From Escherichia phage FL20, in the sequence record PP400781: a DNA stretch of 64,000 bases. One strand, given 5' to 3'. Under the pieces are notes generated by a model, which saw only the letters and a program-made list of their open reading frames with translations, made no database searches and was not told the DNA's origin. Position 1 is the stretch's first letter, and every line of letters starts with the position of its first letter. Positions 5,608 through 33,393 of the stretch are shown here, in pieces. Position numbers and translations under genes: made by a program.

Positions 5608-5968
5608 AGGTTGCAAGCCTATATTCTATTGGGAGCGAAAATAGATACACACAACAAAGACAGGAAGATGCAGAACATCGGTGGGTTGCTAGCCTAAATC
5701 CGGTGGCTATGATATGTGATTGATTTTGATGCTGGATTTATTAAAACACAACAAACAATTCCACCAATTTTCGTAGTAACTGCATGGCAAAGGGACCAAT
5801 GAATGAAATGAGCGTTCATGTTGATATTGGGTCGGATAGATTTGGTAGATATACAGATCTGGTGTATGCCGACCTTGTTATGACATTCCAGTGTGACGCT
5901 AGCGGTAATTTTTGGTTTTGGTACGCTGTTCCCCGAATTAACCCAAAATTCTCCATAAGGAGGAATGC

Positions 5969-6121
5969 ATGAGTAAGAAAGAAAACAGCTATGTTATGAC
6001 TCGTAAGGAATACAACGAATTGATGTTAGCATTAGCTTATGCAATTATTCGTTCTGATCATGCAATTAATCTGGTAAACAAAGTTAACCGTAGCGTTGAT
6101 AATGTTTCTAGGAAGAAGTAA
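5969..6121 (+). CDS. hypothetical small protein (50 aa)
   Basis: ORF below track cutoff; strong SD AAGGAGG 5 nt upstream of ATG; sits in 23-24 intergenic region where T4 has segD. Confidence 0.4.
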   Translation: MSKKENSYVMTRKEYNELMLALAYAIIRSDHAINLVNKVNRSVDNVSRKK

Positions 6122-6160
6122 GTTTATTTTTGGAATCCTTTGGATTCCTTTTTCTTTTTG

Positions 6161-6168
6161 TATAAATA
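6161..6168 (+). promoter_or_regulatory. T4-type late promoter TATAAATA (gene 24)
   Basis: Exact TATAAATA 38 nt upstream of proposed gene 24 start. Confidence 0.65.
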
Positions 6169-6205
6169 TGATATATCCATTAAGGCAAATACAGGATTCA
6201 TAAAC

Positions 6206-7447
6206 ATGACTCATATTTTTACTGAACTGTTGCGGGAATCTACTTCCTCAGTAGCTAACCAGACAGCGCGACCGCAACTATTATCATTAACTCGCGCGGT
6301 AAACAACCTGATTTTCTCTGATCTGGTAGCAATCCAGCCAACGGATCAACCAGTATCTGCATTGTACGGCCTACGTTATCTTAATCATGATGGTCAGATG
6401 ACTTTCCGAACTGCTGCAACCTACGGTGGCGCGGTTGGTGATCGCACAGAGATTGAAGAGTTTTCAAAAGAAAAATCTTATGACGAAGGCGCACTATTCA
6501 AATCAGGCGATGTTGTATACGAAGTTGTGACCGCTGGTACAGTCGGTGAAGATGCCGCAACTCCAGAAGCTGCGATCTTTAAAGGCGTAATGACAAACAA
6601 AATTCGTTTCTATAGCGATTGTGCATCGGTAGAATACTTTGAAGATAAAAACACCGAAATTGCGTCTACCTCTATGCAGTTTGACAAGTGGCAAGTTAAT
6701 GTAGGTTCTCGTAAACTGAAAACCTCATTCACGACCGAATTGATGCAGGATCTTGAGGCAAGCCAAATCAACTCTGAAAACTCTGTAATTGATCTTCTGG
6801 CGACTGTTGCTTCCGAAGAGATCAACAAAGATATTATTCAGAAGTTGATCACTGTATCATCTCGCTATAAAATTAAAGGGATCACCCCTGATGGCGTACT
6901 TTCTCTCGTTAGCGTTCAGGATGCACCAACACAAGCGCGTGAACTTTACCGCTACGCGTGCGAGATGAGCAATCAAATGTTGCGGACTTCCTCCTTTGCT
7001 GGTACATACGTTTTGGCGTCTTCTCGCGTGGTTGGCCTCCTGCAATCATCCGGTTGGATGGAAGAAACCGACAATGCTCTAAGCGAAGGTCGTCTACGTT
7101 GCGGTCTGGAAGTGTACGCAGACACGACAACACCTTTCGATTATATGCTCGTTGGTTGTAAGCACATGATCGGTGATATGGAGAGTGTAGGTTCTCTGTT
7201 CTACTCCCCATATACAGAAGCCGACGGCGCTGGCGCGTATAAGAGCGTAATTGACCCTAATAGCTTCCAGCATCATGTAGCTATTATGAATCGTTATTCA
7301 CTATCTGTCAACCCATACACATCAAAAGTTGATCAGGAAGAACACCAGGTCATCAAGGGTGACGATTGGGGTAAAATGGCTGGACGTTCAGAAATGTCCT
7401 ACATTTTAGGAATCGAACTGCCACCGCTTGAGATTGACAACGCTTAA
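6206..7447 (+). CDS. 24: capsid vertex protein
   Basis: Start moved to ATG at 6206 (MTHIF, AGGA upstream, downstream of late promoter); gp23 paralog by position. Confidence 0.85.
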   Translation: MTHIFTELLRESTSSVANQTARPQLLSLTRAVNNLIFSDLVAIQPTDQPVSALYGLRYLNHDGQMTFRTAATYGGAVGDRTEIEEFSKEKSYDEGALFKSGDVVYEVVTAGTVGEDAATPEAAIFKGVMTNKIRFYSDCASVEYFEDKNTEIASTSMQFDKWQVNVGSRKLKTSFTTELMQDLEASQINSENSVIDLLATVASEEINKDIIQKLITVSSRYKIKGITPDGVLSLVSVQDAPTQARELYRYACEMSNQMLRTSSFAGTYVLASSRVVGLLQSSGWMEETDNALSEGRLRCGLEVYADTTTPFDYMLVGCKHMIGDMESVGSLFYSPYTEADGAGAYKSVIDPNSFQHHVAIMNRYSLSVNPYTSKVDQEEHQVIKGDDWGKMAGRSEMSYILGIELPPLEIDNA

Positions 7448-25845: not shown

Positions 25846-26058
25846 TTATAATGCACCATCGAGCAATTGCTCTAAGGTGTATCCTGAATAGTCTTTTTCA
25901 ATCAGGATATATTTTCCTACTCGTTTAATACAACCGCGCATTTCAACGTATTCTGCGTAGTTGATGGTGCGAGTTGTTCCATCTTCCAGTAATGCAGTAC
26001 CGATTTCGTTAATGCGGTCATAAGTTACGTCGGTAATGATGATTTCGATGTTAGCCAT
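25846..26058 (-). CDS. hypothetical small protein (70 aa)
   Basis: ORF directly downstream of PeSL cassette; starts MANIE like 28183..28434. Confidence 0.45.
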   Translation of the reverse strand: MANIEIIITDVTYDRINEIGTALLEDGTTRTINYAEYVEMRGCIKRVGKYILIEKDYSGYTLEQLLDGAL

Positions 26059-26123
26059 TTGATACTCCTTAGTAGTTCGTTTCGGTATGAGTGTATTATG
26101 ATATACACCATCTGTTATGTCAA
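26059..26123 (-). promoter_or_regulatory. PeSL-like early promoter cassette
   Basis: Minus strand: TTGACA, 17-nt spacer, CATAAT, conserved leader, AGGAGT RBS, ATG. Confidence 0.65.
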
Positions 26124-26129
26124 CAACTT

Positions 26130-26309
26130 TTAGAACATTTTTGAAATTAATTCTGCTTTGATTTCGCAGAGAACATCTAAAGATTTCTCGTCACCCGCTT
26201 TTGCTGCTTCTGCTTGCATTTTTGAAATGGCTTCAATGTCAGTGCAATTATAAGCCGCTTGAACTTTAGCTATTGCGATGATTGCCGATTCGATGGTTAA
26301 GTGTTTCAT
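26130..26309 (-). CDS. hypothetical small protein (59 aa)
   Basis: ORF with AGGAGAATC RBS downstream of PeSL. Confidence 0.4.
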   Translation of the reverse strand: MKHLTIESAIIAIAKVQAAYNCTDIEAISKMQAEAAKAGDEKSLDVLCEIKAELISKMF

Positions 26310-26371
26310 GTTTGATTCTCCTTTCGTTTCGGTATGTGTGCATTATAGGGGATCACCGATCCCCCTGTCAA
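26310..26371 (-). promoter_or_regulatory. PeSL-like early promoter cassette
   Basis: TTGACA / 18-nt palindromic spacer GGGGGATCGGTGATCCCC / TATAAT / leader / RBS. Confidence 0.7.
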
Positions 26372-26378
26372 CAATTTT

Positions 26379-26897
26379 TTAGTTATTTTTTAATTGCTCA
26401 TCTTGCAATAGGGCAATCACATGCTGGCGATGTTCTTCCGATTGAGGCACACCGAAAAAGTTTGTTTTGTAGAAATACTCTAATCGGTCTTCTCGTGTGC
26501 TCTCTTCCATCATGATCGCGGGTAGTCCGAGATTTCGGAAACGTCGCTTTTCTGCTGGCGTAAAATCACTGTAATACAACATAGAATCATCATTACAAGC
26601 AATGCTAAACTCATCCTTCATAAAGGAGAATATTGCGTTTAAACGCTGTTTACCGTCCACGATTTCGATCTCATAGCGAGAGCCATCATCAATCTTAGCC
26701 ATTGCGATAGCACCAACCGGAAAATCATTAATCAGGTTTTCGATAAACATACGTTTGTTTTCGGTGTCCCATACTAAAGGACGCTGATAATCTGGGTTCA
26801 TGTTGATATAGCCATCTTCTAACCATGCATCATAAACAGAGATGACAAAGTTTTTAGTATTGGTATAGTAACGGCGTTTAGGCGTTAAACGGTTCAT
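26379..26897 (-). CDS. DUF262 (ParB/GmrSD N-terminal-like) domain protein
   Basis: DYQRPLVW and IVDGKQRL match DUF262 QR and DGQQR motifs; start at MNRL coupled 1 nt after upstream stop with AGGAG RBS. Confidence 0.65.
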   Translation of the reverse strand: MNRLTPKRRYYTNTKNFVISVYDAWLEDGYINMNPDYQRPLVWDTENKRMFIENLINDFPVGAIAMAKIDDGSRYEIEIVDGKQRLNAIFSFMKDEFSIACNDDSMLYYSDFTPAEKRRFRNLGLPAIMMEESTREDRLEYFYKTNFFGVPQSEEHRQHVIALLQDEQLKNN

Positions 26898-26898
26898 G

Positions 26899-27231
26899 TT
26901 ATAGTCTCCTGAATGGATCATCACGTAAATCAATATCTTTTAAGAACTCATCCCATGAATGCCGGATATTGTTCTTAATTCTCCAGATAAGCGCAGGGAT
27001 TGAACGCTCTCCCATCTGGAAGTATGGATCATATGATCCGTATGCCCAATATGCTACTACAATTCCACAATCAGCGCAATAGTATTCTATTTCACTTGCT
27101 GGCGACCAAAGTCCATCAATATGATCGGTGATCTTGCTTTCGATGTTATGGCTATGACAATCAGGGCAACGGATGCAATGACCTTGTTTATCGTAATTTG
27201 ACGTTAGCGAATACTTAAACAATCTCATCAT
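26899..27231 (-). CDS. Cys/His-rich zinc-ribbon-like protein
   Basis: CIRCPDCHSH ... CADCG paired CxxC motifs; overlaps neighbours by 4 nt. Confidence 0.5.
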   Translation of the reverse strand: MMRLFKYSLTSNYDKQGHCIRCPDCHSHNIESKITDHIDGLWSPASEIEYYCADCGIVVAYWAYGSYDPYFQMGERSIPALIWRIKNNIRHSWDEFLKDIDLRDDPFRRL

Positions 27232-27944
27232 AGATCCTTATTTGCTTCAAATACTGCCTTTGCGAATCCTCGCGGGGTAAGTGACCTGATAGTCTTTGTT
27301 TTCGTTCCTTTCCCGCCTAGCTTAGAATGCTGTTTACTGTACCCTTTATTAATCTGCAAAGGTTTCTTTTCTGGCATTATAAAGCCTTGTCCGGTCCATA
27401 AGCAAGTCTTTTTTGGGTACATATCACGGGCGGCAATATACTCAGGAAACGTAGGATGCTTATCATCTTCCGGCAAATAACCGCCATATTCCCACGGATG
27501 GAACATATAATCAGGCTTACGCCACATGCTAGAGATAACGCTTACAGGATTCTCTATCATGTAGGGAACTCCTAGCCATTCACCCAAATAAGCGGTTATT
27601 TTAGCTGCCCTTACATCATGAACTTGAATCAATGGTCCTTGTTCTAGTTTCTTTCGTTCAAAGTGCGCAGCGCCACTAACAGCTAAATTGGTGCACGGTG
27701 GGAATGCAAAGATAATATCCGGTTTCCCCCATTCAAGGTCCATTGCTCTTTCCAGCCAATTCAAATCAATCCAGGTGTTTACATAGGTAATGTTTTGATG
27801 TTCAAATCGGGTATTATATTTTTTGTATGTACCGTGGTCGCCATCATCAGCATTAAAGCAGATCACCTTATGACCTGCTTTAGCCCATTCTAGCCCCATT
27901 ATCCCCGATCCGTCAAAGTTGCAGAATATTAATTTTTGTTTCAT
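27228..27944 (-). CDS. C5-cytosine methyltransferase-like protein (short)
   Basis: FCNFDGSG (motif I-like), FAFPPCTNLAVSG (PC motif IV-like), YMIENP (ENV motif VI-like); only 238 aa, no clear target-recognition domain. Confidence 0.45.
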   Translation of the reverse strand: MKQKLIFCNFDGSGIMGLEWAKAGHKVICFNADDGDHGTYKKYNTRFEHQNITYVNTWIDLNWLERAMDLEWGKPDIIFAFPPCTNLAVSGAAHFERKKLEQGPLIQVHDVRAAKITAYLGEWLGVPYMIENPVSVISSMWRKPDYMFHPWEYGGYLPEDDKHPTFPEYIAARDMYPKKTCLWTGQGFIMPEKKPLQINKGYSKQHSKLGGKGTKTKTIRSLTPRGFAKAVFEANKDL

Positions 27945-28186
27945 ATACGACCCTTTAACCCAGCACAGATTTTAGTCGGTTCTTTACCGTGCCACATTAA
28001 GTAAAGTCCGTTAATGCGACCTTGTTTTGTGTGTGATTCTTTTCTGATCTTCTTATAGTGTCGTGCTTCCTCAACCGATTGTTTAGAATACCAATCATAA
28101 AGGAAGAGGAACAAAGGCCAGCCATTAGCGACCTTAATACAGTTATTCAAAAATTCCTTATTTCGTTTAATTAATTTTCTTTTCAC
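27941..28186 (-). CDS. hypothetical small basic protein (81 aa)
   Basis: Translationally coupled within the 28434-to-26379 operon. Confidence 0.45.
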   Translation of the reverse strand: MKRKLIKRNKEFLNNCIKVANGWPLFLFLYDWYSKQSVEEARHYKKIRKESHTKQGRINGLYLMWHGKEPTKICAGLKGRI

Positions 28187-28434
28187 GCTGCCCCCATTGG
28201 TTTGATAGTAACAGAATCTAAAAGACCTTTGTTAGCCAGTTCGCGGCAAGTTTTCAGATCCGCAACTTCCCAGCCAGCCGCAATCAGGTTATCAATCAGG
28301 CTGTTAGCAACTTCTTCGCTCATGAAAGAGCACTGTTTGCCGATGGTGTAGCGCACACGCTGTAATTTCAGTTTACGGAAGCCTTTAACGTTCAGGTCTT
28401 TAGCGATTTTCTTTGCGGTTTCGATGTTAGCCAT
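28183..28434 (-). CDS. hypothetical small protein (83 aa)
   Basis: First gene after PeSL; N-terminus MANIE shared with 25846..26058. Confidence 0.5.
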   Translation of the reverse strand: MANIETAKKIAKDLNVKGFRKLKLQRVRYTIGKQCSFMSEEVANSLIDNLIAAGWEVADLKTCRELANKGLLDSVTIKPMGAA

Positions 28435-28503
28435 TGTTTGATTCTCCTAAGTGGTATCTCGTCTTGATGGTTGTATTGTAGGGGAGTTATCCTCCCCTGT
28501 CAA
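28435..28503 (-). promoter_or_regulatory. PeSL-like early promoter cassette
   Basis: TTGACA / palindromic spacer GGGGAGGATAACTCCCC / TACAAT / leader / AGGAGAATC RBS. Confidence 0.7.
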
Positions 28504-28550
28504 CACTTTTTATAAAATTATTTGTTAATTTCTGGTGCGTTGCTAGGATA

Positions 28551-28685
28551 TTAACCTTCTTTAACTCCGAGGTATTTCGCAACCATCCCTACAATCTTCT
28601 GTGCTACTACAATGTCAAATTTCAGATAATCTTCGCCGTGGGTTTCAATGATATATGCTTCACATGCTGCTTTAGTCTCGAACAT
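28551..28685 (-). CDS. truncated paralog of 31801..31968 (44 aa)
   Basis: MFETKAACEAYIIETHGEDYLKFDIVVAQKI; TAA replaces TAC, shortening it by 12 codons relative to the paralog. Confidence 0.45.
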   Translation of the reverse strand: MFETKAACEAYIIETHGEDYLKFDIVVAQKIVGMVAKYLGVKEG

Positions 28686-28747
28686 TTTTATTCTCCTATT
28701 TCGTTTCGTTATGTGTGTATTATAGGGGATCTCCCGATCCCCGTCAA
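28686..28747 (-). promoter_or_regulatory. PeSL-like early promoter cassette
   Basis: TTGACG / palindromic 17-nt spacer with two GATC / TATAAT / leader / RBS. Confidence 0.65.
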
Positions 28748-28761
28748 CAACTTTTTTAAAA

Positions 28762-29043
28762 TTATTCGTGATTAGTTTCGATGTTGTGCATTTTGCACCA
28801 GTTCAGCCAATCACCCAGATCCTGATAGTTAATTCTTTTATCTGCTGCCATCGTTTTTGTCTTGATACCCATATGTGCGTTATGAGTAAGCATTTTTACA
28901 GTGAACTCAATTTTATCACCTTTAGCTTTAACATCAACCAGTTTGGTCCACTGGCTACCAGCTCCGCGAATGTTCATACCAACGATGTTTCCGATGTATG
29001 CTTCTTTGTTTTTCAGGATTTCGGTTGCTTTGATGAATTTCAT
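28762..29043 (-). CDS. hypothetical small protein (93 aa)
   Basis: ORF downstream of PeSL. Confidence 0.5.
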   Translation of the reverse strand: MKFIKATEILKNKEAYIGNIVGMNIRGAGSQWTKLVDVKAKGDKIEFTVKMLTHNAHMGIKTKTMAADKRINYQDLGDWLNWCKMHNIETNHE

Positions 29044-29105
29044 TTTTGATTCTCCAGTTCGTTTCGGTATGTGTGTATTATGCTATGTTCTTACTTTGGT
29101 GTCAA
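29044..29105 (-). promoter_or_regulatory. PeSL-like early promoter cassette
   Basis: TTGACA / 17 nt / CATAAT / conserved leader ACACACATACCGAAACGAA / RBS. Confidence 0.65.
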
Positions 29106-29113
29106 CAACTTTT

Positions 29114-29383
29114 TTAGATATTTTCAGAAATAAATTTTAAAACTTGACGTAAATGTTTCTCATCTTTGATAGTCGCCGGAAGTTCTTCTTTTACTTCCTG
29201 TGCAAGATAGATATTTCCGTTCCAAGTGAAAGATCCGTCTTCGTTTACGCGATAGCTGAACATCCACTCGCAATCATTTTCGATTTCATATACACACAGA
29301 AGGGTGTAATCGTTAAAGCTATTGATTTCAAGGTCGAAGCCGTGACGTTTTGCAAAGTTGGTAGTGGTTTTAGTCAGCGCCAT
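29114..29383 (-). CDS. hypothetical small protein (89 aa)
   Basis: ORF downstream of PeSL. Confidence 0.5.
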   Translation of the reverse strand: MALTKTTTNFAKRHGFDLEINSFNDYTLLCVYEIENDCEWMFSYRVNEDGSFTWNGNIYLAQEVKEELPATIKDEKHLRQVLKFISENI

Positions 29384-29452
29384 TGTTTGATTCTCCTAAG
29401 TGGTATCTCGTTTCGATGGGTGTATTATGCTATAGGCGTGATCTGGTGTCAA
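29384..29452 (-). promoter_or_regulatory. PeSL-like early promoter cassette
   Basis: TTGACA / 17 nt / CATAAT / leader variant shared with cassette at 28435. Confidence 0.65.
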
Positions 29453-29476
29453 CAACTTTTTTAAAATTTTATGCAA

Positions 29477-29502
29477 TAAAAAAGCCGACACTAAGGTCGG
29501 CT
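29477..29502 (-). terminator. rho-independent terminator (minus strand)
   Basis: Minus-strand hairpin AGCCGACCttagTGTCGGCT followed by 7 U. Confidence 0.65.
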
Positions 29503-29509
29503 AATAAAA

Positions 29510-29818
29510 TCATTTAGACAAATAATCATTCAGTGCAATCCGGTTGGCGTATGCTGGTGTTACGTCAATCGCAATCACTTTAACGCGTGCTTTCTTGCGA
29601 CCTGGGTTTTCTCGTAACCAGTGCTCATGACCGTGAACATTTTTATACTGCGATGCTTCTTCGAAGGTACGGATCGGACCTGGATAATCTGCGTAAAGGA
29701 TCTCTAGGTCTTCGGTGATGTAAAAATATACATCATAATTACTGTTCTCTAGTTTAAGCAGAGACTTTCGGAACATTGGGAGATTTTCGCGGGTAAATTC
29801 AAAGATATTATCTTTCAT
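29510..29818 (-). CDS. small protein, HxHW family member A
   Basis: YDVYFYITEDLEILYADY ... HGHEHW ... VKVIAIDV; paralog of B-G. Confidence 0.55.
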   Translation of the reverse strand: MKDNIFEFTRENLPMFRKSLLKLENSNYDVYFYITEDLEILYADYPGPIRTFEEASQYKNVHGHEHWLRENPGRKKARVKVIAIDVTPAYANRIALNDYLSK

Positions 29819-29871
29819 AGTATTATCCTCAATAGTTGGATGAAAAGGGGTGGGGCTTAACGCCCCGTATA

Positions 29872-30159
29872 TTAAAACAGTCCTTCCTGTACACCGTAGT
29901 AGAGTTCATCGCTGATAATTTCATTAATGCGACGGTGTGCATATTCCTGATTTGCGAAGTTATCAGCAAGTTCTACTTTAGTTTCGCCGTCATGAGTCCA
30001 TTTAGTGATAACTTTACCATCTGCAAATTTGAAGTTGAACTCTTTAGCTACCGCATCGCGTACCAGACGTGCGAACTTGTTGTTACGGATTGCATTATCG
30101 GTTTCGTGTGCAGCGTGAGCGAATTTGTTAACTTTCAGAGTGATAGTAATGTATGCCAT
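29872..30159 (-). CDS. hypothetical small protein (95 aa)
   Basis: ORF downstream of PeSL. Confidence 0.5.
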   Translation of the reverse strand: MAYITITLKVNKFAHAAHETDNAIRNNKFARLVRDAVAKEFNFKFADGKVITKWTHDGETKVELADNFANQEYAHRRINEIISDELYYGVQEGLF

Positions 30160-30234
30160 AATTTGATTCTCCTAGTTAGAAAGTGTATCTCGTTTCGATG
30201 GGGATATTATGCTATACACCCGATCTTATGTCAA
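30160..30234 (-). promoter_or_regulatory. PeSL-like early promoter cassette
   Basis: TTGACA / 17 nt / CATAAT / leader / AGGAGAATC RBS. Confidence 0.65.
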
Positions 30235-30240
30235 CACTTT

Positions 30241-30519
30241 TTATAAAATAATTTTTTGATATTTTTCTATGATGTTTGTGTAGGTCACGTCAACCGCTAG
30301 CACCGTTGCTTCGAATCCACCGTTTAACCAATGGCTATGATCATGATCGTGAAAGAAACCTAGACCAGTACGAAGACCTTCTTTATATTCGGCGCGTACA
30401 TTTAGATCATCATCGATAAACAGATAAAACCATGAATTTTTACTAGGATTGATGATACAACCTTTCAGATTAGGGAGAATATCACGACTAAGAATAAACT
30501 TATCACCTACTTTGAGCAT
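30241..30519 (-). CDS. small protein, HxHW family member B
   Basis: WFYLFIDDDLNVRAEY ... HDHDHSHW ... ATVLAVDV; start at MLKVG. Confidence 0.55.
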   Translation of the reverse strand: MLKVGDKFILSRDILPNLKGCIINPSKNSWFYLFIDDDLNVRAEYKEGLRTGLGFFHDHDHSHWLNGGFEATVLAVDVTYTNIIEKYQKIIL

Positions 30520-30533
30520 AATATTTTCCTCAC

Positions 30534-30842
30534 TTATAAAGTTTGACCGTTGTTTTTCGCGTAATGCTGAATGCGTGCTTGATCTGCTTCCGCTGGTGAT
30601 AGATTCCATGCAACCACTACAACTTCTGACGCATCGTCATCCGTTTTTGATACCCAATGATTGTGATTCATACAGTTATTTGCTATCGAGTGAGAAAATG
30701 ATTGCGTCACTGGAGACGTATAATCATAGTAACGGATTTTCAGATTTTCATCAACGTACAAGTAGATCGTATACGGCTTATATTCAGTAACCAGTAACAG
30801 ACAGTTACGCAATTCTGGGAAAATCTTTTTAGTTAATTTCAT
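30534..30842 (-). CDS. small protein, HxHW family member C
   Basis: YTIYLYVDENLKIRYYDY ... NHNHW ... VVVVAWNL; start at MKLTKK. Confidence 0.5.
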   Translation of the reverse strand: MKLTKKIFPELRNCLLLVTEYKPYTIYLYVDENLKIRYYDYTSPVTQSFSHSIANNCMNHNHWVSKTDDDASEVVVVAWNLSPAEADQARIQHYAKNNGQTL

Positions 30843-30843
30843 T

Positions 30844-31062
30844 TTATAATCCTCGGTCGCGGCTATAGTACACGGTACGCCATACAATTTCATGTTTCGT
30901 GTCGCTCCAGCACACGATCTCATTTACTCTTAAATCTTTGTTATCAACAAAAGATGAACATTGTGACGCTTCTTTCATCATTTTATCTGCTGTTTTCTCA
31001 TCAAATACAGCACAGATTTCTTTATACACTCGATAATCTTTGAATTGACTCTGAATACCCAT
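30844..31062 (-). CDS. hypothetical small protein, tandem paralog 1
   Basis: FKDYRVYKEICAVFDEKTADKMMKEASQCSSF resembles the next ORF. Confidence 0.4.
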   Translation of the reverse strand: MGIQSQFKDYRVYKEICAVFDEKTADKMMKEASQCSSFVDNKDLRVNEIVCWSDTKHEIVWRTVYYSRDRGL

Positions 31063-31279
31063 AATTAACACCATTCCAACCAATTGTTTTTGAGAAAACG
31101 TTTATCCACTGTTGAGTGTAGCATGTTTCTTTCCATGATACAATACGAGTAGAATAATGGTTTTTGTTTCCAGAAAAGGACGGGCATTTTGATGCATCTT
31201 CCATCATCTTTTCGGCGAACTCTGGTGCGTATACTCGCAGGATCTGTTGATATGCTTTGTATTCTTTAAATTTGCTCAT
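31022..31279 (-). CDS. hypothetical small protein, tandem paralog 2
   Basis: FKEYKAYQQILRVYAPEFAEKMMEDASKCPSF resembles the previous ORF; 3' end overlaps it. Confidence 0.4.
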   Translation of the reverse strand: MSKFKEYKAYQQILRVYAPEFAEKMMEDASKCPSFSGNKNHYSTRIVSWKETCYTQQWINVFSKTIGWNGVNYGYSESIQRLSSV

Positions 31280-31544
31280 AATCATTCACTACCTTATCAG
31301 CTTCTTTTGTTGTTTTTACATCAACTGCGATAACTCGTAAAGGTTCGTCATGGTTCCACCAGTGGTCATGAATATCAGCTTGTGATTTATCACAAAAGGA
31401 ATCACGAATATCATTTTTACATTTATAGCTAATGTGACCGTCATAGTCAACATAAAGGTAATTATCGAAAATCGGCGTTTTTAAGATCATACCGAAAAAT
31501 CTTTCTTTGTGTGTCTTATCCAGTGTTGCAGTAATTCGCATCAT
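31266..31544 (-). CDS. small protein, HxHW family member D
   Basis: NYLYVDYDGHISYKC ... HDHWWNH ... LRVIAVDV. Confidence 0.55.
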   Translation of the reverse strand: MMRITATLDKTHKERFFGMILKTPIFDNYLYVDYDGHISYKCKNDIRDSFCDKSQADIHDHWWNHDEPLRVIAVDVKTTKEADKVVNDYEQI

Positions 31545-31556
31545 AATATATTCCTC

Positions 31557-31736
31557 TTAGAAAGGGATGGTCATTTCTTGAGCTTGTACATTCTCGTTAG
31601 GATTAAACTTCATCCAGCCGATATTGTCTACCAGCATATGCACATTTTTATCATATCCTACGTGGGTAGTCAATACTGTATGTGCTTTACCTTCAATGAT
31701 GAGTTCCATGTACTTCTGAACTTCGATAGCTTTCAT
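31557..31736 (-). CDS. hypothetical small protein (59 aa)
   Basis: ORF below track cutoff, immediately downstream of PeSL. Confidence 0.4.
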   Translation of the reverse strand: MKAIEVQKYMELIIEGKAHTVLTTHVGYDKNVHMLVDNIGWMKFNPNENVQAQEMTIPF

Positions 31737-31797
31737 TTTGATTCTCCGTTTGTTGTCTTGATGGGAGTATCTTACTACTCCCTTTAATCATTGTCAA
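31737..31797 (-). promoter_or_regulatory. PeSL-like early promoter cassette
   Basis: TTGACA / 17 nt / TAAGAT with hairpin GGGAGTAgtaagaTACTCCC overlapping -10. Confidence 0.6.
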
Positions 31798-31800
31798 CTA

Positions 31801-31968
31801 TTATTTGTTAATTTCCGGTGCGTTGCTCGGATAGTAACCTTCTTTAACACCTAGATATTTTGCAACCATTCCGGTGATCTTCTGTGCTACTACGATATCG
31901 AATTTCAGGTAGTCTTCACCGTGGTTTGCTACAATGTATGCTTCGCATTCTGCTTTAGTCTCGAACAT
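31801..31968 (-). CDS. hypothetical small protein (56 aa), full-length paralog of 28551..28685
   Basis: MFETKAECEAYIVANHGEDYLKFDIVVAQKITGMVAKYLGVKEGYYPSNAPEINK. Confidence 0.5.
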   Translation of the reverse strand: MFETKAECEAYIVANHGEDYLKFDIVVAQKITGMVAKYLGVKEGYYPSNAPEINK

Positions 31969-32031
31969 TTTTGATTCTCCTATATCTCGTTGGTATGTGT
32001 GCATTATAGGGGATCACCGATCCCCTGTCAA
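31969..32031 (-). promoter_or_regulatory. PeSL-like early promoter cassette
   Basis: TTGACA / GGGGATCGGTGATCCCC / TATAAT / leader / RBS. Confidence 0.7.
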
Positions 32032-32038
32032 CAACTTT

Positions 32039-32341
32039 TTATTCTTCGTCTTTATCTTTATATGCGTATTTCATAAATTTGTCTGCTACTTCGTCCGCGT
32101 TTTCAGGTTCTACATCTGACGCTAGGACAACAGCTAGTTCGGTTTTGTCGTTTCCATCATACCAATGATTATGAGTGTCTTTTTCTTCGATATAAAACGA
32201 ATCATTTGGAGTTGGGCGACAATATACGTCTAAATTCCCATCGATATAAAAGATCCAATCCGAATACAAAATGATTGTTTTAGCCAGATTTTTATTGTCT
32301 CTTACAAAAGGTTCCGCGACAAATAGCTTAGTTTGTTCCAT
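32039..32341 (-). CDS. small protein, HxHW family member E
   Basis: WIFYIDGNLDVYCR ... HNHWYDG ... ELAVVLASDV; start at MEQTK. Confidence 0.55.
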   Translation of the reverse strand: MEQTKLFVAEPFVRDNKNLAKTIILYSDWIFYIDGNLDVYCRPTPNDSFYIEEKDTHNHWYDGNDKTELAVVLASDVEPENADEVADKFMKYAYKDKDEE

Positions 32342-32357
32342 AGTAATTTCCTCAAAA

Positions 32358-32549
32358 TTATACAGCTTCGTAAACTTCCCAATGTCCAACACCAGCACGC
32401 TTAACGAAAAGGTTTTCTTTGATGTTATTCATAAACGTCTGGATGGATTTAATGCGGTTGGAAGGTTTCCAGTCTTCGTTGGCATTGCGGCGATACATCA
32501 TAACATTACCAGTTCGCTTATATTCAGCAACCATTTTAAGACCACACAT
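32358..32549 (-). CDS. hypothetical small protein (63 aa)
   Basis: ORF downstream of a variant cassette. Confidence 0.4.
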   Translation of the reverse strand: MCGLKMVAEYKRTGNVMMYRRNANEDWKPSNRIKSIQTFMNNIKENLFVKRAGVGHWEVYEAV

Positions 32550-32627
32550 AATATTATCCTCAATTTGTGGGAGAGTATTACCCTCCCGATTATTGTTATA
32601 CTACATTACGCAAAATGGCGTGTCAAT
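32550..32627 (-). promoter_or_regulatory. variant early promoter with leader stem-loop
   Basis: TTGACA / spacer / TATAAC, then hairpin GGGAGggtaatactCTCCC in leader, RBS GAGGATAA. Confidence 0.5.
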
Positions 32628-32926
32628 GCTTCTTTTGCTGTTCCGCTAAGATTCTCGATCTCTCCTGGCATAACATCAACCGCAAGAACTTCTACAACAT
32701 CCTCTGATCCTAACCAGTGAGTATGACCTTTGTAGAACTTGATAACCAGACTACCTTCCTCATCCCATTTAACGCTATCGCTAGCCCACCACACATCACC
32801 GTCGATAAAGTTGATGTAAAGCACACTACGCCACATTGAATCGGTTACTTTCAATATTGCGCCTTTCATCTCTTCCACGGTGTGGTCTTCCATTTTGAAG
32901 ACCTCGCCTACTTGAACTTTTGCCAT
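32606..32926 (-). CDS. small protein, HxHW family member F
   Basis: VLYINFIDGDVWWASD ... HTHWLGSED ... VEVLAVDV; start at MAKVQ. Confidence 0.55.
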   Translation of the reverse strand: MAKVQVGEVFKMEDHTVEEMKGAILKVTDSMWRSVLYINFIDGDVWWASDSVKWDEEGSLVIKFYKGHTHWLGSEDVVEVLAVDVMPGEIENLSGTAKEALTRHFA

Positions 32927-32927
32927 G

Positions 32928-33194
32928 TTACATGCTCCGAATATGTTTAGCTGCATCTTCCAGTTCGTCGATAGTGACACTGTGTGCCAGTAAGTGTACT
33001 GGTTGTGGTTCTTCACCTTCCATAGTATTGATCAGATGACCGTTTCCTGGGTGGAATGTATCGTTGCCGTTCCAAATAGCATACACATCATCTTCTGTTA
33101 CGTAGATAATAAGTCCAATCGGTGATTCTGGTAATTGAAAAATTTTACCCACTGCATCTTTGCGATTGTCTACGATATCTTTTACTGTCTTCAT
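32928..33194 (-). CDS. small protein, divergent HxHW-family-like member G
   Basis: GLIIYVTEDDVYAIW ... HPGNGH ... HLLAHSVTID; weaker motif match. Confidence 0.4.
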   Translation of the reverse strand: MKTVKDIVDNRKDAVGKIFQLPESPIGLIIYVTEDDVYAIWNGNDTFHPGNGHLINTMEGEEPQPVHLLAHSVTIDELEDAAKHIRSM

Positions 33195-33213: not shown

Positions 33214-33393
33214 TTACATCACAATCACGCCAGCCGTAGAAAGTTGATGTTTCAACTGAGCATTTTCTGCTACCGTCAAATCAATGATTTCTTGTGACGC
33301 TGCAATCATATAACCATTGGTGATATTGTTTTGCATCAGTTCAATGGTTTCTTCGTTGTAGCGGATTTTAGCGATGATTTCGTTGAAGTTCAT
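33214..33393 (-). CDS. hypothetical small protein (59 aa)
   Basis: Start at MNFNEII just downstream of PeSL RBS. Confidence 0.4.
   Translation of the reverse strand: MNFNEIIAKIRYNEETIELMQNNITNGYMIAASQEIIDLTVAENAQLKHQLSTAGVIVM

Follow-up and report, generated by a model that had tools for sequence, protein, structure and literature searches.

Why should two genes of unrelated sequence, lying in the same phage, begin with exactly the same 16 nucleotides (nt)? This question is raised by a 64,000-nt stretch of Escherichia phage FL20 (sequence record PP400781; hereafter, the window), in which ORF185 and ORF190 (ORF, open reading frame) both open with ATGGCTAACATCGAAA, encoding MANIE. Both genes lie on the minus strand, the direction of every gene in the window between 23.6 and 34 kb; their starts are 2.4 kb apart in the same region, and each is driven by one of the repeated expression cassettes described in related phages as promoter-early stem-loops (PeSLs). 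We favor, with somewhat better than even confidence, a model in which the MANIE block is the scar of one PeSL-type exchange that ended a few codons inside the gene. The evidence, good but circumstantial, consists of the rarity of such sharing, a polarity between the two gene families and two parallel cases, and taken together it inclines us modestly toward that model.

The common start and the unrelated bodies behind it had both been noted in the original prediction, which was made from the DNA alone, and both observations hold. The exact repeat is 17 nt long (AATGGCTAACATCGAAA, repeat family D10; coordinates of all features are collected in Table 1), and the match is complete at the four synonymous third positions and takes in the flanking bases as well, −1 on one side and the first after codon 5 on the other. 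Beyond it the genes diverge at once, ORF185 continuing ...TCATCATT and ORF190 ...CCGCAAAG. BLASTP gave no alignment between the two proteins at E ≤ 100, their PHROG assignments differ, and neither protein has a Pfam match. That the two genes are remote paralogues, or have inherited a common ancestral N-terminal module, is scarcely credible: this idea has nothing to draw on beyond the five common residues, and against it stand the failed alignment, the different PHROGs and the ORF185 homologues, which lack MANIE. Within the window the block has only two matches, even when up to two mismatches are allowed, and none of 100 shuffled sequences contained two matches. It is unchanged in nine of nine Krischvirus loci examined.

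How readily such sharing arises by accident was estimated from gene starts. Among the 87 starts of the window, the runner-up among non-paralogues shares 11 nt. In the complete genome of RB49, joined from five pieces and yielding 258 called starts, ORF185 and ORF190 have the longest shared start of all 33,153 pairs. With codons shuffled within each codon position as the null, 0.017 pairs sharing at least 16 nt are expected genome-wide. This null is two- to fivefold too low at 11–13 nt (at ≥11 nt, 12 pairs against an expected 5; at ≥13 nt, 3 against 0.6), and therefore we set the true genome-wide chance at a value that is probably between 0.02 and 0.1; it is lower still for this pair because both genes are cassette-driven and lie 2.4 kb apart. 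Non-homologous pairs sharing at least 13 nt were found 4 times among 33,746 pairs within genomes and never among 19,482 pairs between genomes, a comparison in the right direction but underpowered, with too few genomes for significance. Pure coincidence, in which 2 of ~260 genes share 16 starting nt by accident, gains something from the fat tail of shared-start lengths relative to the null and from the post hoc choice of the pair. We nonetheless regard it as quite unlikely in view of the null expectation and the placement of the two genes, of the family comparison, in which only one of the two gene families has the block as its own, and of an independent second case in the contig L046, for which the expectation is roughly 0.001 over ~190 pairs (extrapolated from the RB49 null).

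The distribution of the motif among homologues gives the sharing a direction. Homologues of ORF190 with 57–73% identity start MNIEAAKK (L045), MLTIETAKK (L049), MKVDAAKK (L046) and MLNAAKK (L048), and that of L045 is preceded by the same leader, CCACTTAGGAGAATCAAA. In another contig, L002, the ORF190-homologous domain is internal, ...EINEIKAIAKALGVKGFRK (EINEIKAIAK), and lies behind a 49-amino-acid N-terminal extension. Because diverged homologues keep the NIE(T/A) motif, we assign it to this family, and on sequence comparison NIE(T/A)AKK is native to ORF190. Homologues of ORF185 come from a metagenomic contig (56% identity) and from 42 phage records of ~46–52 kb, of which all four examined are Drexlerviridae (T1-like); they start MVTSKK-IIIDVTYD, MAIKVTKKETK-IINVTFD or MLKCTIKTIR-VVNVTFD, and never MANIE. 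When ORF185 was searched against Drexlerviridae with tblastn, alignments began at query residues 5–8 and invariant columns at residues 7–8, so that the ORF185 family is alignable only just past the shared block. Since NIE is native to the ORF190 family and foreign to that of ORF185, the first five codons of ORF185 were probably imported from an ORF190-type start, overwriting its own. The earlier reading of MANIE as a common start belonging to the cassette is thus not borne out, as family comparison identifies it as the N-terminus of ORF190 itself, copied once onto ORF185. We attempted to derive the exact crossover in ORF185 from its homologue in L002 but abandoned this, as at 56% amino acid identity the homologue is too diverged, and simple joins at a GAAA microhomology are out of frame.

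The setting of the two genes bears on how such an import could have come about. The window is 97–99% identical to the Krischvirus genomes (RB49-like T4-type coliphages) FL15, RB49 and phi1, and its genes here correspond one for one to RB49p185–p198, which are annotated as hypothetical proteins (29114..29383, for example, is RB49p194); six of them have no Pfam match and PHROG matches of unknown function. The part from 25.8 to 33.5 kb corresponds to the ORFan-rich RB49 stretch that Arbiol et al. 2010 named hyperplastic region HPR3, and its cassettes are the published PeSLs (PMC2839356). A PeSL consists of an AT-rich tract, a sigma-70 consensus promoter, a stem-loop, a Shine-Dalgarno (SD) sequence and an ATG, over roughly 100 bp, and ~50 are present per RB49/phi1-type genome, mainly in hyperplastic regions ahead of ORFans (PMC2839356). 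By the published description, the AT-rich tract comes after the stop codon of the preceding gene, and the stem-loop is stable, often polyG...polyC, lies in, across or beside the promoter and serves as a terminator or attenuator (PMC2839356). These elements were proposed and shown to mediate modular shuffling in which ORFans are deleted, inserted or swapped between cassettes; the main worked example was the ORF190–195 part of the present locus, from which RB49 ORF191–194 is excised during infection as an encapsidated mini-circle (PMC2839356). Comeau et al. 2014 treated PeSLs of RB49/phi1 and other T4-type phages in a second paper (PMC4122927).

Most of this anatomy recurs in the window, where many small early ORFans of the HPR3-like part have a cassette ahead of them. 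Seven minus-strand sites match the consensus TTGACA / TATAAT at 11–12 of 12 positions and are predicted promoters (26123, 26371, 28503, 28747, 29105, 29452 and 30234). An A-rich tract, (T)AAAAA(A)GTTG or AAAAAGTG, stands directly 5′ of TTGAC in the cassettes; a G/C hairpin of the GGGGATCGGTGATCCCC type occupies the spacer in the PeSLs of ORF186, ORF190, ORF191 and ORF205 and in the cassette at 33393, and no obvious G/C hairpin is present in the spacers of PeSL185 and PeSL193. When the nine window cassettes were aligned with 30 nt of coding sequence each, all nine had GGAG followed after 6–9 nt by ATG. Spacers fell into two types, a G/C hairpin with TATAAT or ...TATAGCATAAT, and leaders likewise, either CATACCGAAACGAA... 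(type 1) or CAT-C(G/A)A(A/G)ACGAGATA with an ACT(T/A)AGGAG-type insert (type 2). All four combinations of spacer and leader are present; the cassettes are therefore mosaic in the pattern expected from recombination within them. PeSL185 itself looks mosaic, with a type-1 leader on its 5′ side and the ACT(A/T)AGGAG insert of type-2 leaders on its 3′ side. The start ATGGC follows all four cassettes with the leader insert (those of ORF185, 190, 194 and 198) and none of the five others.

The alignment separates two things that the original prediction had joined, namely the codons shared by ORF185 and ORF190 and the homology of the cassettes ahead of them. The shared codons are real and the cassettes are mosaic, but the homology does not run on from one into the other: the ORF185 and ORF190 leaders are different variants, with a 3-nt indel between SD and ATG, and what the window shows at MANIE is an isolated patch of identity from −1 onward, not a smooth continuation of the cassette. 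In some metagenomic Krischvirus variants, the ORF185 leader is GAACCACTAAGGAGTATCAAAA, which by a count made by eye equals the ORF190 leader at ~20 of 22 positions with one gap. The shared tract therefore probably once extended from about −22 to +16. The claim that the cassettes at 28435 and 29384 carry one leader variant was confirmed, as 33 bases are identical, ACGAGATACCACTTAGGAGAATCAAACA plus ATGGC, including the variant AAGTGGTATCTCGT noted earlier. This identity of the ORF190 and ORF194 leaders, like the cassettes and their recombination, is already known; the crossover zone published for the ORF191–194 mini-circle contains the 33-nt block, and the identity has thus been explained experimentally (PMC2839356).

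Junctions in related genomes show where exchanges in this region have resolved. We compared the window with RB49, JSE, JK32, ECD7, MIZ5 and L006, a 166-kb metagenomic Krischvirus contig. ORF186 is absent from ECD7 and JK32, where a single chimeric cassette remains, its left part from PeSL186 and its right part from PeSL185, joined within CATACCGAAACGAA. JK32 also lacks ORF191 and has a PeSL191/PeSL190 chimera joined at ACACAT|CAAGAC. In MIZ4/5, ORF186–191 are missing and the stop codon of ORF193 is followed by a chimeric cassette and then by ORF185 with its MANIE start. The slot after ORF193 holds ORF192 in RB49 and an unrelated gene in JSE (gene 199), and it is empty in the window and in phi1; its right boundary is the AT-rich edge of PeSL191 and its left boundary lies directly after the ORF193 stop. 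The deletions of MIZ4/5 and JK32 also have their left junction at the upstream edge of PeSL191, and PeSL186 is the recombination partner of PeSL185 in the relatives without ORF186. A 97-nt stretch present once in the window is found twice in RB49, where ORF195–196 lie between the two copies. The general idea that recombination between cassettes moves gene bodies is thus upheld by the chimeric cassettes of ECD7, JK32 and MIZ5, as it is by the published work (PMC2839356). What fits less well is its specific form, a swap of bodies behind cassette and MANIE together; most junctions in relatives were found in the cassettes and none at the MANIE block.

Two side observations concern the same comparison. 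The products of RB49 ORF192 (L001, 5959–6435) and JSE gene 199 (L042, 5252–5563) have hydrophobic, signal-peptide-like N-termini, and each gene is preceded by a hairpin and an SD, not by a full promoter cassette. In L006 (ENA ERZ1689768 NODE_5, ~5990–6030), a deletion of ~2 kb joins window position ~28346 to ~30318 and fuses the ORF at 30241..30609, frame-shifted, with mid-ORF190; the 7-nt microhomology at the join, CCAT(T/C)GG, is imperfect, and the junction is illegitimate, not cassette-mediated.

Gene starts can themselves serve as boundaries. ORF189.1 and ORF189 have a common start, RTGAAAMRAAAATTAAT (MK(R/Q)KLI), identical at 15 of 17 nt, and each overlaps the stop codon of the preceding gene. 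JSE, JK32 and L006 lack ORF189.1, and their junction, ...GCAGCGTGAAA|CAAAAATTAAT, lies inside the repeated start, which is thus an indel boundary without involvement of a cassette. This case raises the question of whether the two MANIE copies are likewise direct repeats, flanking a 2.4-kb mobile block from ORF190 to ORF186 (including the Dcm-like methyltransferase and a GmrSD_N-domain gene) that arrived as a mini-circle and integrated, by recombination of the Campbell type, at a gene start of matching sequence. The ORF189.1 module, with its junction inside gene-start repeats, offers a precedent; PeSL mini-circles are documented (PMC2839356), and MIZ4/5 lack the entire block along with ORF191. 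The MIZ4/5 deletion junctions, however, lie in cassettes and not in the 16-nt repeats, and ORF185 still begins MANIE there. The ORF185 target would also have to carry the 16-mer beforehand, which merely pushes the question back, and we consider this history very unlikely.

A further parallel to the MANIE block, and one compatible with an exchange that ends inside the gene, comes from L046 (ENA ERZ27235406 k119_4708), an uncultured Krischvirus relative whose alt gene is 46% identical to that of the window. At 5909–5922 and 6525–6538 in this contig, the homologues of ORF198 and ORF194 (ORF198h and ORF194h), which are unrelated and have different leaders, share their first 14 nt (ATGGCAATCATCAC, MAIIT), ORF198h starting ATGGCAATCATCACTATT (MAIITIT) and ORF194h ATGGCAATCATCACCAAA (MAIITKTT). 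MA(I/Y)ITIT is native to ORF198. Among 99 homologues of ORF194 the usual start is M-x-x-(S/T)-KTT, and MAIIT-KTT, with one extra residue, occurs in L046 only; a join at an ATCAC microhomology, one codon out of register, would yield it. No closer isolate of the L046 lineage was found in the phage collection, where the best matches were Krischvirus with ~72% identity over 14–23% of the query.

If both cases have the same origin, PeSL-type tracts in the hyperplastic regions of T4-like phages would repeatedly end a few codons inside an ORFan and overwrite its N-terminus from an unrelated neighbor (ORF190 onto ORF185; ORF198h onto ORF194h), a generalization that we hold to be about evenly balanced between right and wrong. 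The L046 case also bears on convergence, that is, on the possibility that an Ala second codon and A-rich, unstructured early codons were reached independently, or kept fixed, by selection on translation initiation. The predicted mRNA 5′ regions of ORF185, ORF190 and ORF194 (26025–26100, 28400–28480 and 29350–29430) have minimum free energies of about −3 to −5 kcal/mol and are markedly less structured than dinucleotide shuffles (z = +1.3 to +1.95). In addition, several unrelated IMG/VR phage contigs (e.g., L014, L015, L032 and L041) contain the 16-mer in a position where it could begin a gene, preceded by an SD-like sequence, and the block is invariant across Krischvirus loci. Convergence would nevertheless have to account for exact identity at the four synonymous third positions and at both flanking bases, and the recipients, ORF185 and ORF194h of L046, each equal a neighboring gene in their own genome and not a general optimum. 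Sharing of ≥13 nt was not seen among the 19,482 pairs between genomes, and other cassette-driven genes start quite differently. We therefore consider convergence an unlikely origin of the block, although selection for an open initiation region probably helps a chimera to persist.

Regulation could also keep such a block constant. In T4, RegA acts on the initiation regions of early mRNAs; regA and regB are both annotated in RB49, and the block is invariant and overlaps the AUG, as would suit a shared RNA operator for a translational repressor such as RegA. Yet only two genes carry the block, no resemblance to a RegA site is evident, and an operator gives no account of why it equals the native coding sequence of ORF190; we regard this explanation as extremely unlikely. 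Chance, a Campbell-type repeat, a RegA-type operator and remote paralogy all rank below convergence as rivals to the exchange that we propose.

We infer that exchange, and the order of its steps, from the observed repeat and its rarity, the identity of the cassettes, the cassette junctions in relatives and the polarity between donor and recipient. Its downstream end would have fallen ~16 nt into the coding sequence instead of in the leader, so that the SD region, the ATG and the first five codons of ORF190 were pasted onto ORF185 in place of the original N-terminus. This could have occurred through a short conversion patch, or through a deletion that fused the ORF190 start to the ORF185 body, with the ORF190–186 block re-inserted later through a cassette. 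Subsequent crossovers between cassettes, mostly between the −10 element and the ATG, would then have shuffled the sequence upstream, so that only the coding portion survived as an island of identity. Such a chimera may have been tolerated because proteins this small depend little on their first residues, and because with the imported start the initiation region stays open and free of structure.

A number of points weigh against this account, beginning with the statistical ones given above: the null that is too low at 11–13 nt, the post hoc character of the start-sharing statistics and the underpowered comparison within and between genomes. Cassette-associated junctions mapped in relatives are all 5′ of the ATG, in the leader or at the AT-rich edge, and none falls in the MANIE block. 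The model needs later re-assortment upstream, because the identity starts at −1 and the leaders differ. Polarity in ORF185 depends on distant homologues (39–56% identity) whose N-termini are variable anyway. The block is invariant in all sampled Krischvirus loci, leaving no polymorphism to trace, and neither a polymorphic junction at the block nor an intermediate was found in isolate loci, 63 matched phage-collection records, IMG/VR or metagenomes. More specifically, no third coding body behind cassette and MANIE was found in isolate loci, IMG/VR or metagenomes; an exact scan of IMG/VR for the 16-mer returned 31 loci, of which the 3 from Krischvirus each carry ORF185 or ORF190, the others being unrelated matches. 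Metagenome contigs scanned with a gapped pattern gave 5 loci, none of them a hybrid in which the leader of either ORF185 or ORF190 precedes the body of the other, and no genome with the order ORF191, PeSL190 and MANIE-ORF185 body, lacking the intervening block, was present in the IMG/VR, phage-collection or metagenome scans.

Table 1. Features of the ORF185–ORF194 region, in window coordinates
Feature	Position	Strand	Remarks
17-nt repeat, copy 1 (AATGGCTAACATCGAAA)	26043..26059	−	Position −1, start codon and first 5 codons of ORF185; putative recipient (imported)
17-nt repeat, copy 2	28419..28435	−	Start of ORF190; putative donor (native)
ORF185	25846..26058	−	RB49p185; 70 amino acids; ORFan; PHROG 10679
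ORF190	28183..28434	−	RB49p190; 83 amino acids; ORFan; PHROG 14908
33-nt block, copy 1	28430..28462	−	28 nt of leader including SD, plus ATGGC; ahead of and into ORF190; repeat family D5
33-nt block, copy 2	29379..29411	−	Ahead of and running into ORF194
PeSL185	26059..26129	−	−35 TTGACA 26118–26123; −10 CATAAT 26095–26100; leader CATACCGAAACGAACTACTAAGGAGTATCAA
PeSL186	26310..26378	−	12/12 consensus promoter; GGGGGATCGGTGATCCCC hairpin in spacer
PeSL190	28435..28550	−	−35 28498–28503; −10 TACAAT 28475–28480; GGGGAGGATAACTCCCC spacer hairpin; type-2 leader CATCAAGACGAGATACCACTTAGGAGAATCAAACA
PeSL191	28686..28761	−	Upstream edge is insertion point of RB49 ORF192 and JSE gene 199
PeSL193	29044..29113	−	Type-B spacer, type-1 leader
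PeSL194	29384..29509	−	Terminator-like hairpin 29483–29502 upstream; −35 29447–29452; −10 29424–29429
ORF189.1 start (GTGAAAAGAAAATTAAT, MKRKLI)	28170..28186	−	Direct imperfect repeat (15/17) of ORF189 start
ORF189 start (ATGAAACAAAAATTAAT, MKQKLI)	27928..27944	−	Dcm-like methyltransferase; partner repeat of ORF189.1 indel

Several further features of the window and its relatives were recorded. On the minus strand at 28776–28792, AATGCACAACATCGAAA matches the block at 14 of 17 positions, a partial third copy inside the region encoding the C-terminus of ORF193 (KMHNIETNHE); we set it aside as probably a coincidence, because the segment is conserved in the distant ORF193 homologue of L002 (MYDIES). 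The ORF at 33214..33393 contains CGAAATCATC in register with ORF185, but its translation looked unrelated and the match was taken as chance. Positions 28517–28689 and 31800–31972 form a 173-nt duplication with 85% identity, which comprises ORF191 and a paralogue (31801..31968), each with its own cassette and opening MFETKA(A/E)CEAY.... In the window ORF191 has a premature stop and encodes 44 amino acids, versus 55 in RB49. From 29510 to 33194 on the minus strand runs a tandem series of small paralogous ORFs (29510..29818, 30241..30609, 30534..30923, 31266..31544, 32039..32398, 32606..33016 and 32928..33194) with C-terminal ...H-x-H-W... and ...(A/I)VDV... motifs recognized by eye; it looks like a locally expanded ORFan family.

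The wider distribution of these genes also deserves mention. In L002 (Logan SRR18080419_2831, 6001–7390), homologues of ORF185, ORF193, ORF194 and ORF190 are clustered in a different order behind TTGACC...TAGGAGA-type cassettes, with neighbors that include OmpW-like proteins and a serine recombinase. ORF185 and ORF194 (29114–29383) have many homologues in phage genomes of ~50 kb, and a 176-nt piece of the Dcm-like gene (27394–27569) has ~80% nucleotide identity to Salmonella phages of ~46–51 kb. ORF185, ORF194 and Dcm-like ORFans seem to circulate between unrelated phage families. The four intergenic regions of Drexlerviridae examined contain a hairpin and, reminiscent of the PeSL leader, a leader of the ...CG(G/A)AACG... 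type. Finally, a metagenomic protein of 139 amino acids (P0016) has an unrelated, acidic N-terminal region and a last stretch of ~31 residues that is 90% identical to the C-terminus of ORF190; it may be another fusion involving this gene.

If tracts repeatedly end inside ORFans, as in the generalization above, the functional cassette by which foreign gene bodies are captured and expressed would include the initiation codon and also the first 4–5 codons, and ORFan shuffling would regularly give rise to N-terminal chimeras. The proposed exchange, if correct, would refine our picture of where PeSL exchanges resolve, with the same event having occurred independently in a second lineage. Chimeric N-termini of ORFans would then matter for the annotation of very small phage proteins and for inferring their homology, and shared starts of unrelated genes within a genome would provide a simple signature of past exchanges in other phages. 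The significance is modest, in that a known mechanism would be refined and no new kind of system added. The polarity of the exchange, from an ORF190-type start onto ORF185, appears to be new. Term searches of the two PeSL papers turned up nothing on N-termini, on homology that enters the coding sequence, on exchange endpoints in the first codons or on N-terminal chimeras, and in both papers the PeSL is drawn only as far as the start codon (PMC2839356, PMC4122927).

Among known systems, the PeSLs themselves are the closest, as they are found in the same genus, were studied in the ORF190–195 part of this very locus, have much the same anatomy and undergo the same ORFan indels and swaps with chimeric cassettes (PMC2839356, PMC4122927). 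The published cassette, however, ends at the start codon, whereas here and in the L046 parallel the exchange apparently ends 14–16 nt inside the gene. The morons of tailed phages offer a second comparison; in the model associated with Hendrix and Juhala, they and the mosaicism of these phages are said to arise by illegitimate recombination. Like PeSL-driven ORFans, morons are small accessory genes with their own promoter and terminator that are gained and lost between conserved genes, but their gain is thought to be independent of conserved flanking repeats, whereas most junctions here lie in repeated cassettes; the ~2-kb deletion in L006 is of the illegitimate type, as in that model. Morons are contrasted with PeSLs in the Discussion of a PeSL paper as well.

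The short gene-boundary homologies of lambdoid phages resemble the present case in acting as preferred crossover points, a role that the ORF189.1/ORF189 start repeat also plays. The modular theory of Susskind and Botstein reportedly envisaged such boundary or linker sequences between lambdoid modules, and boundary sequences are also said to occur in HK620-type phages. In contrast to linkers in temperate phages, the sequences involved here are full expression cassettes and gene starts in a virulent T4-type phage. Integron cassettes (attC/attI) provide a last analogy, since there too single ORFs are captured close to a promoter and excised as small circles, but no integrase or attC is involved here. 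The exchange would instead reflect homologous or short-homology recombination by the phage's own machinery, and the RB49 annotation includes uvsX, uvsY and gene 46/47.

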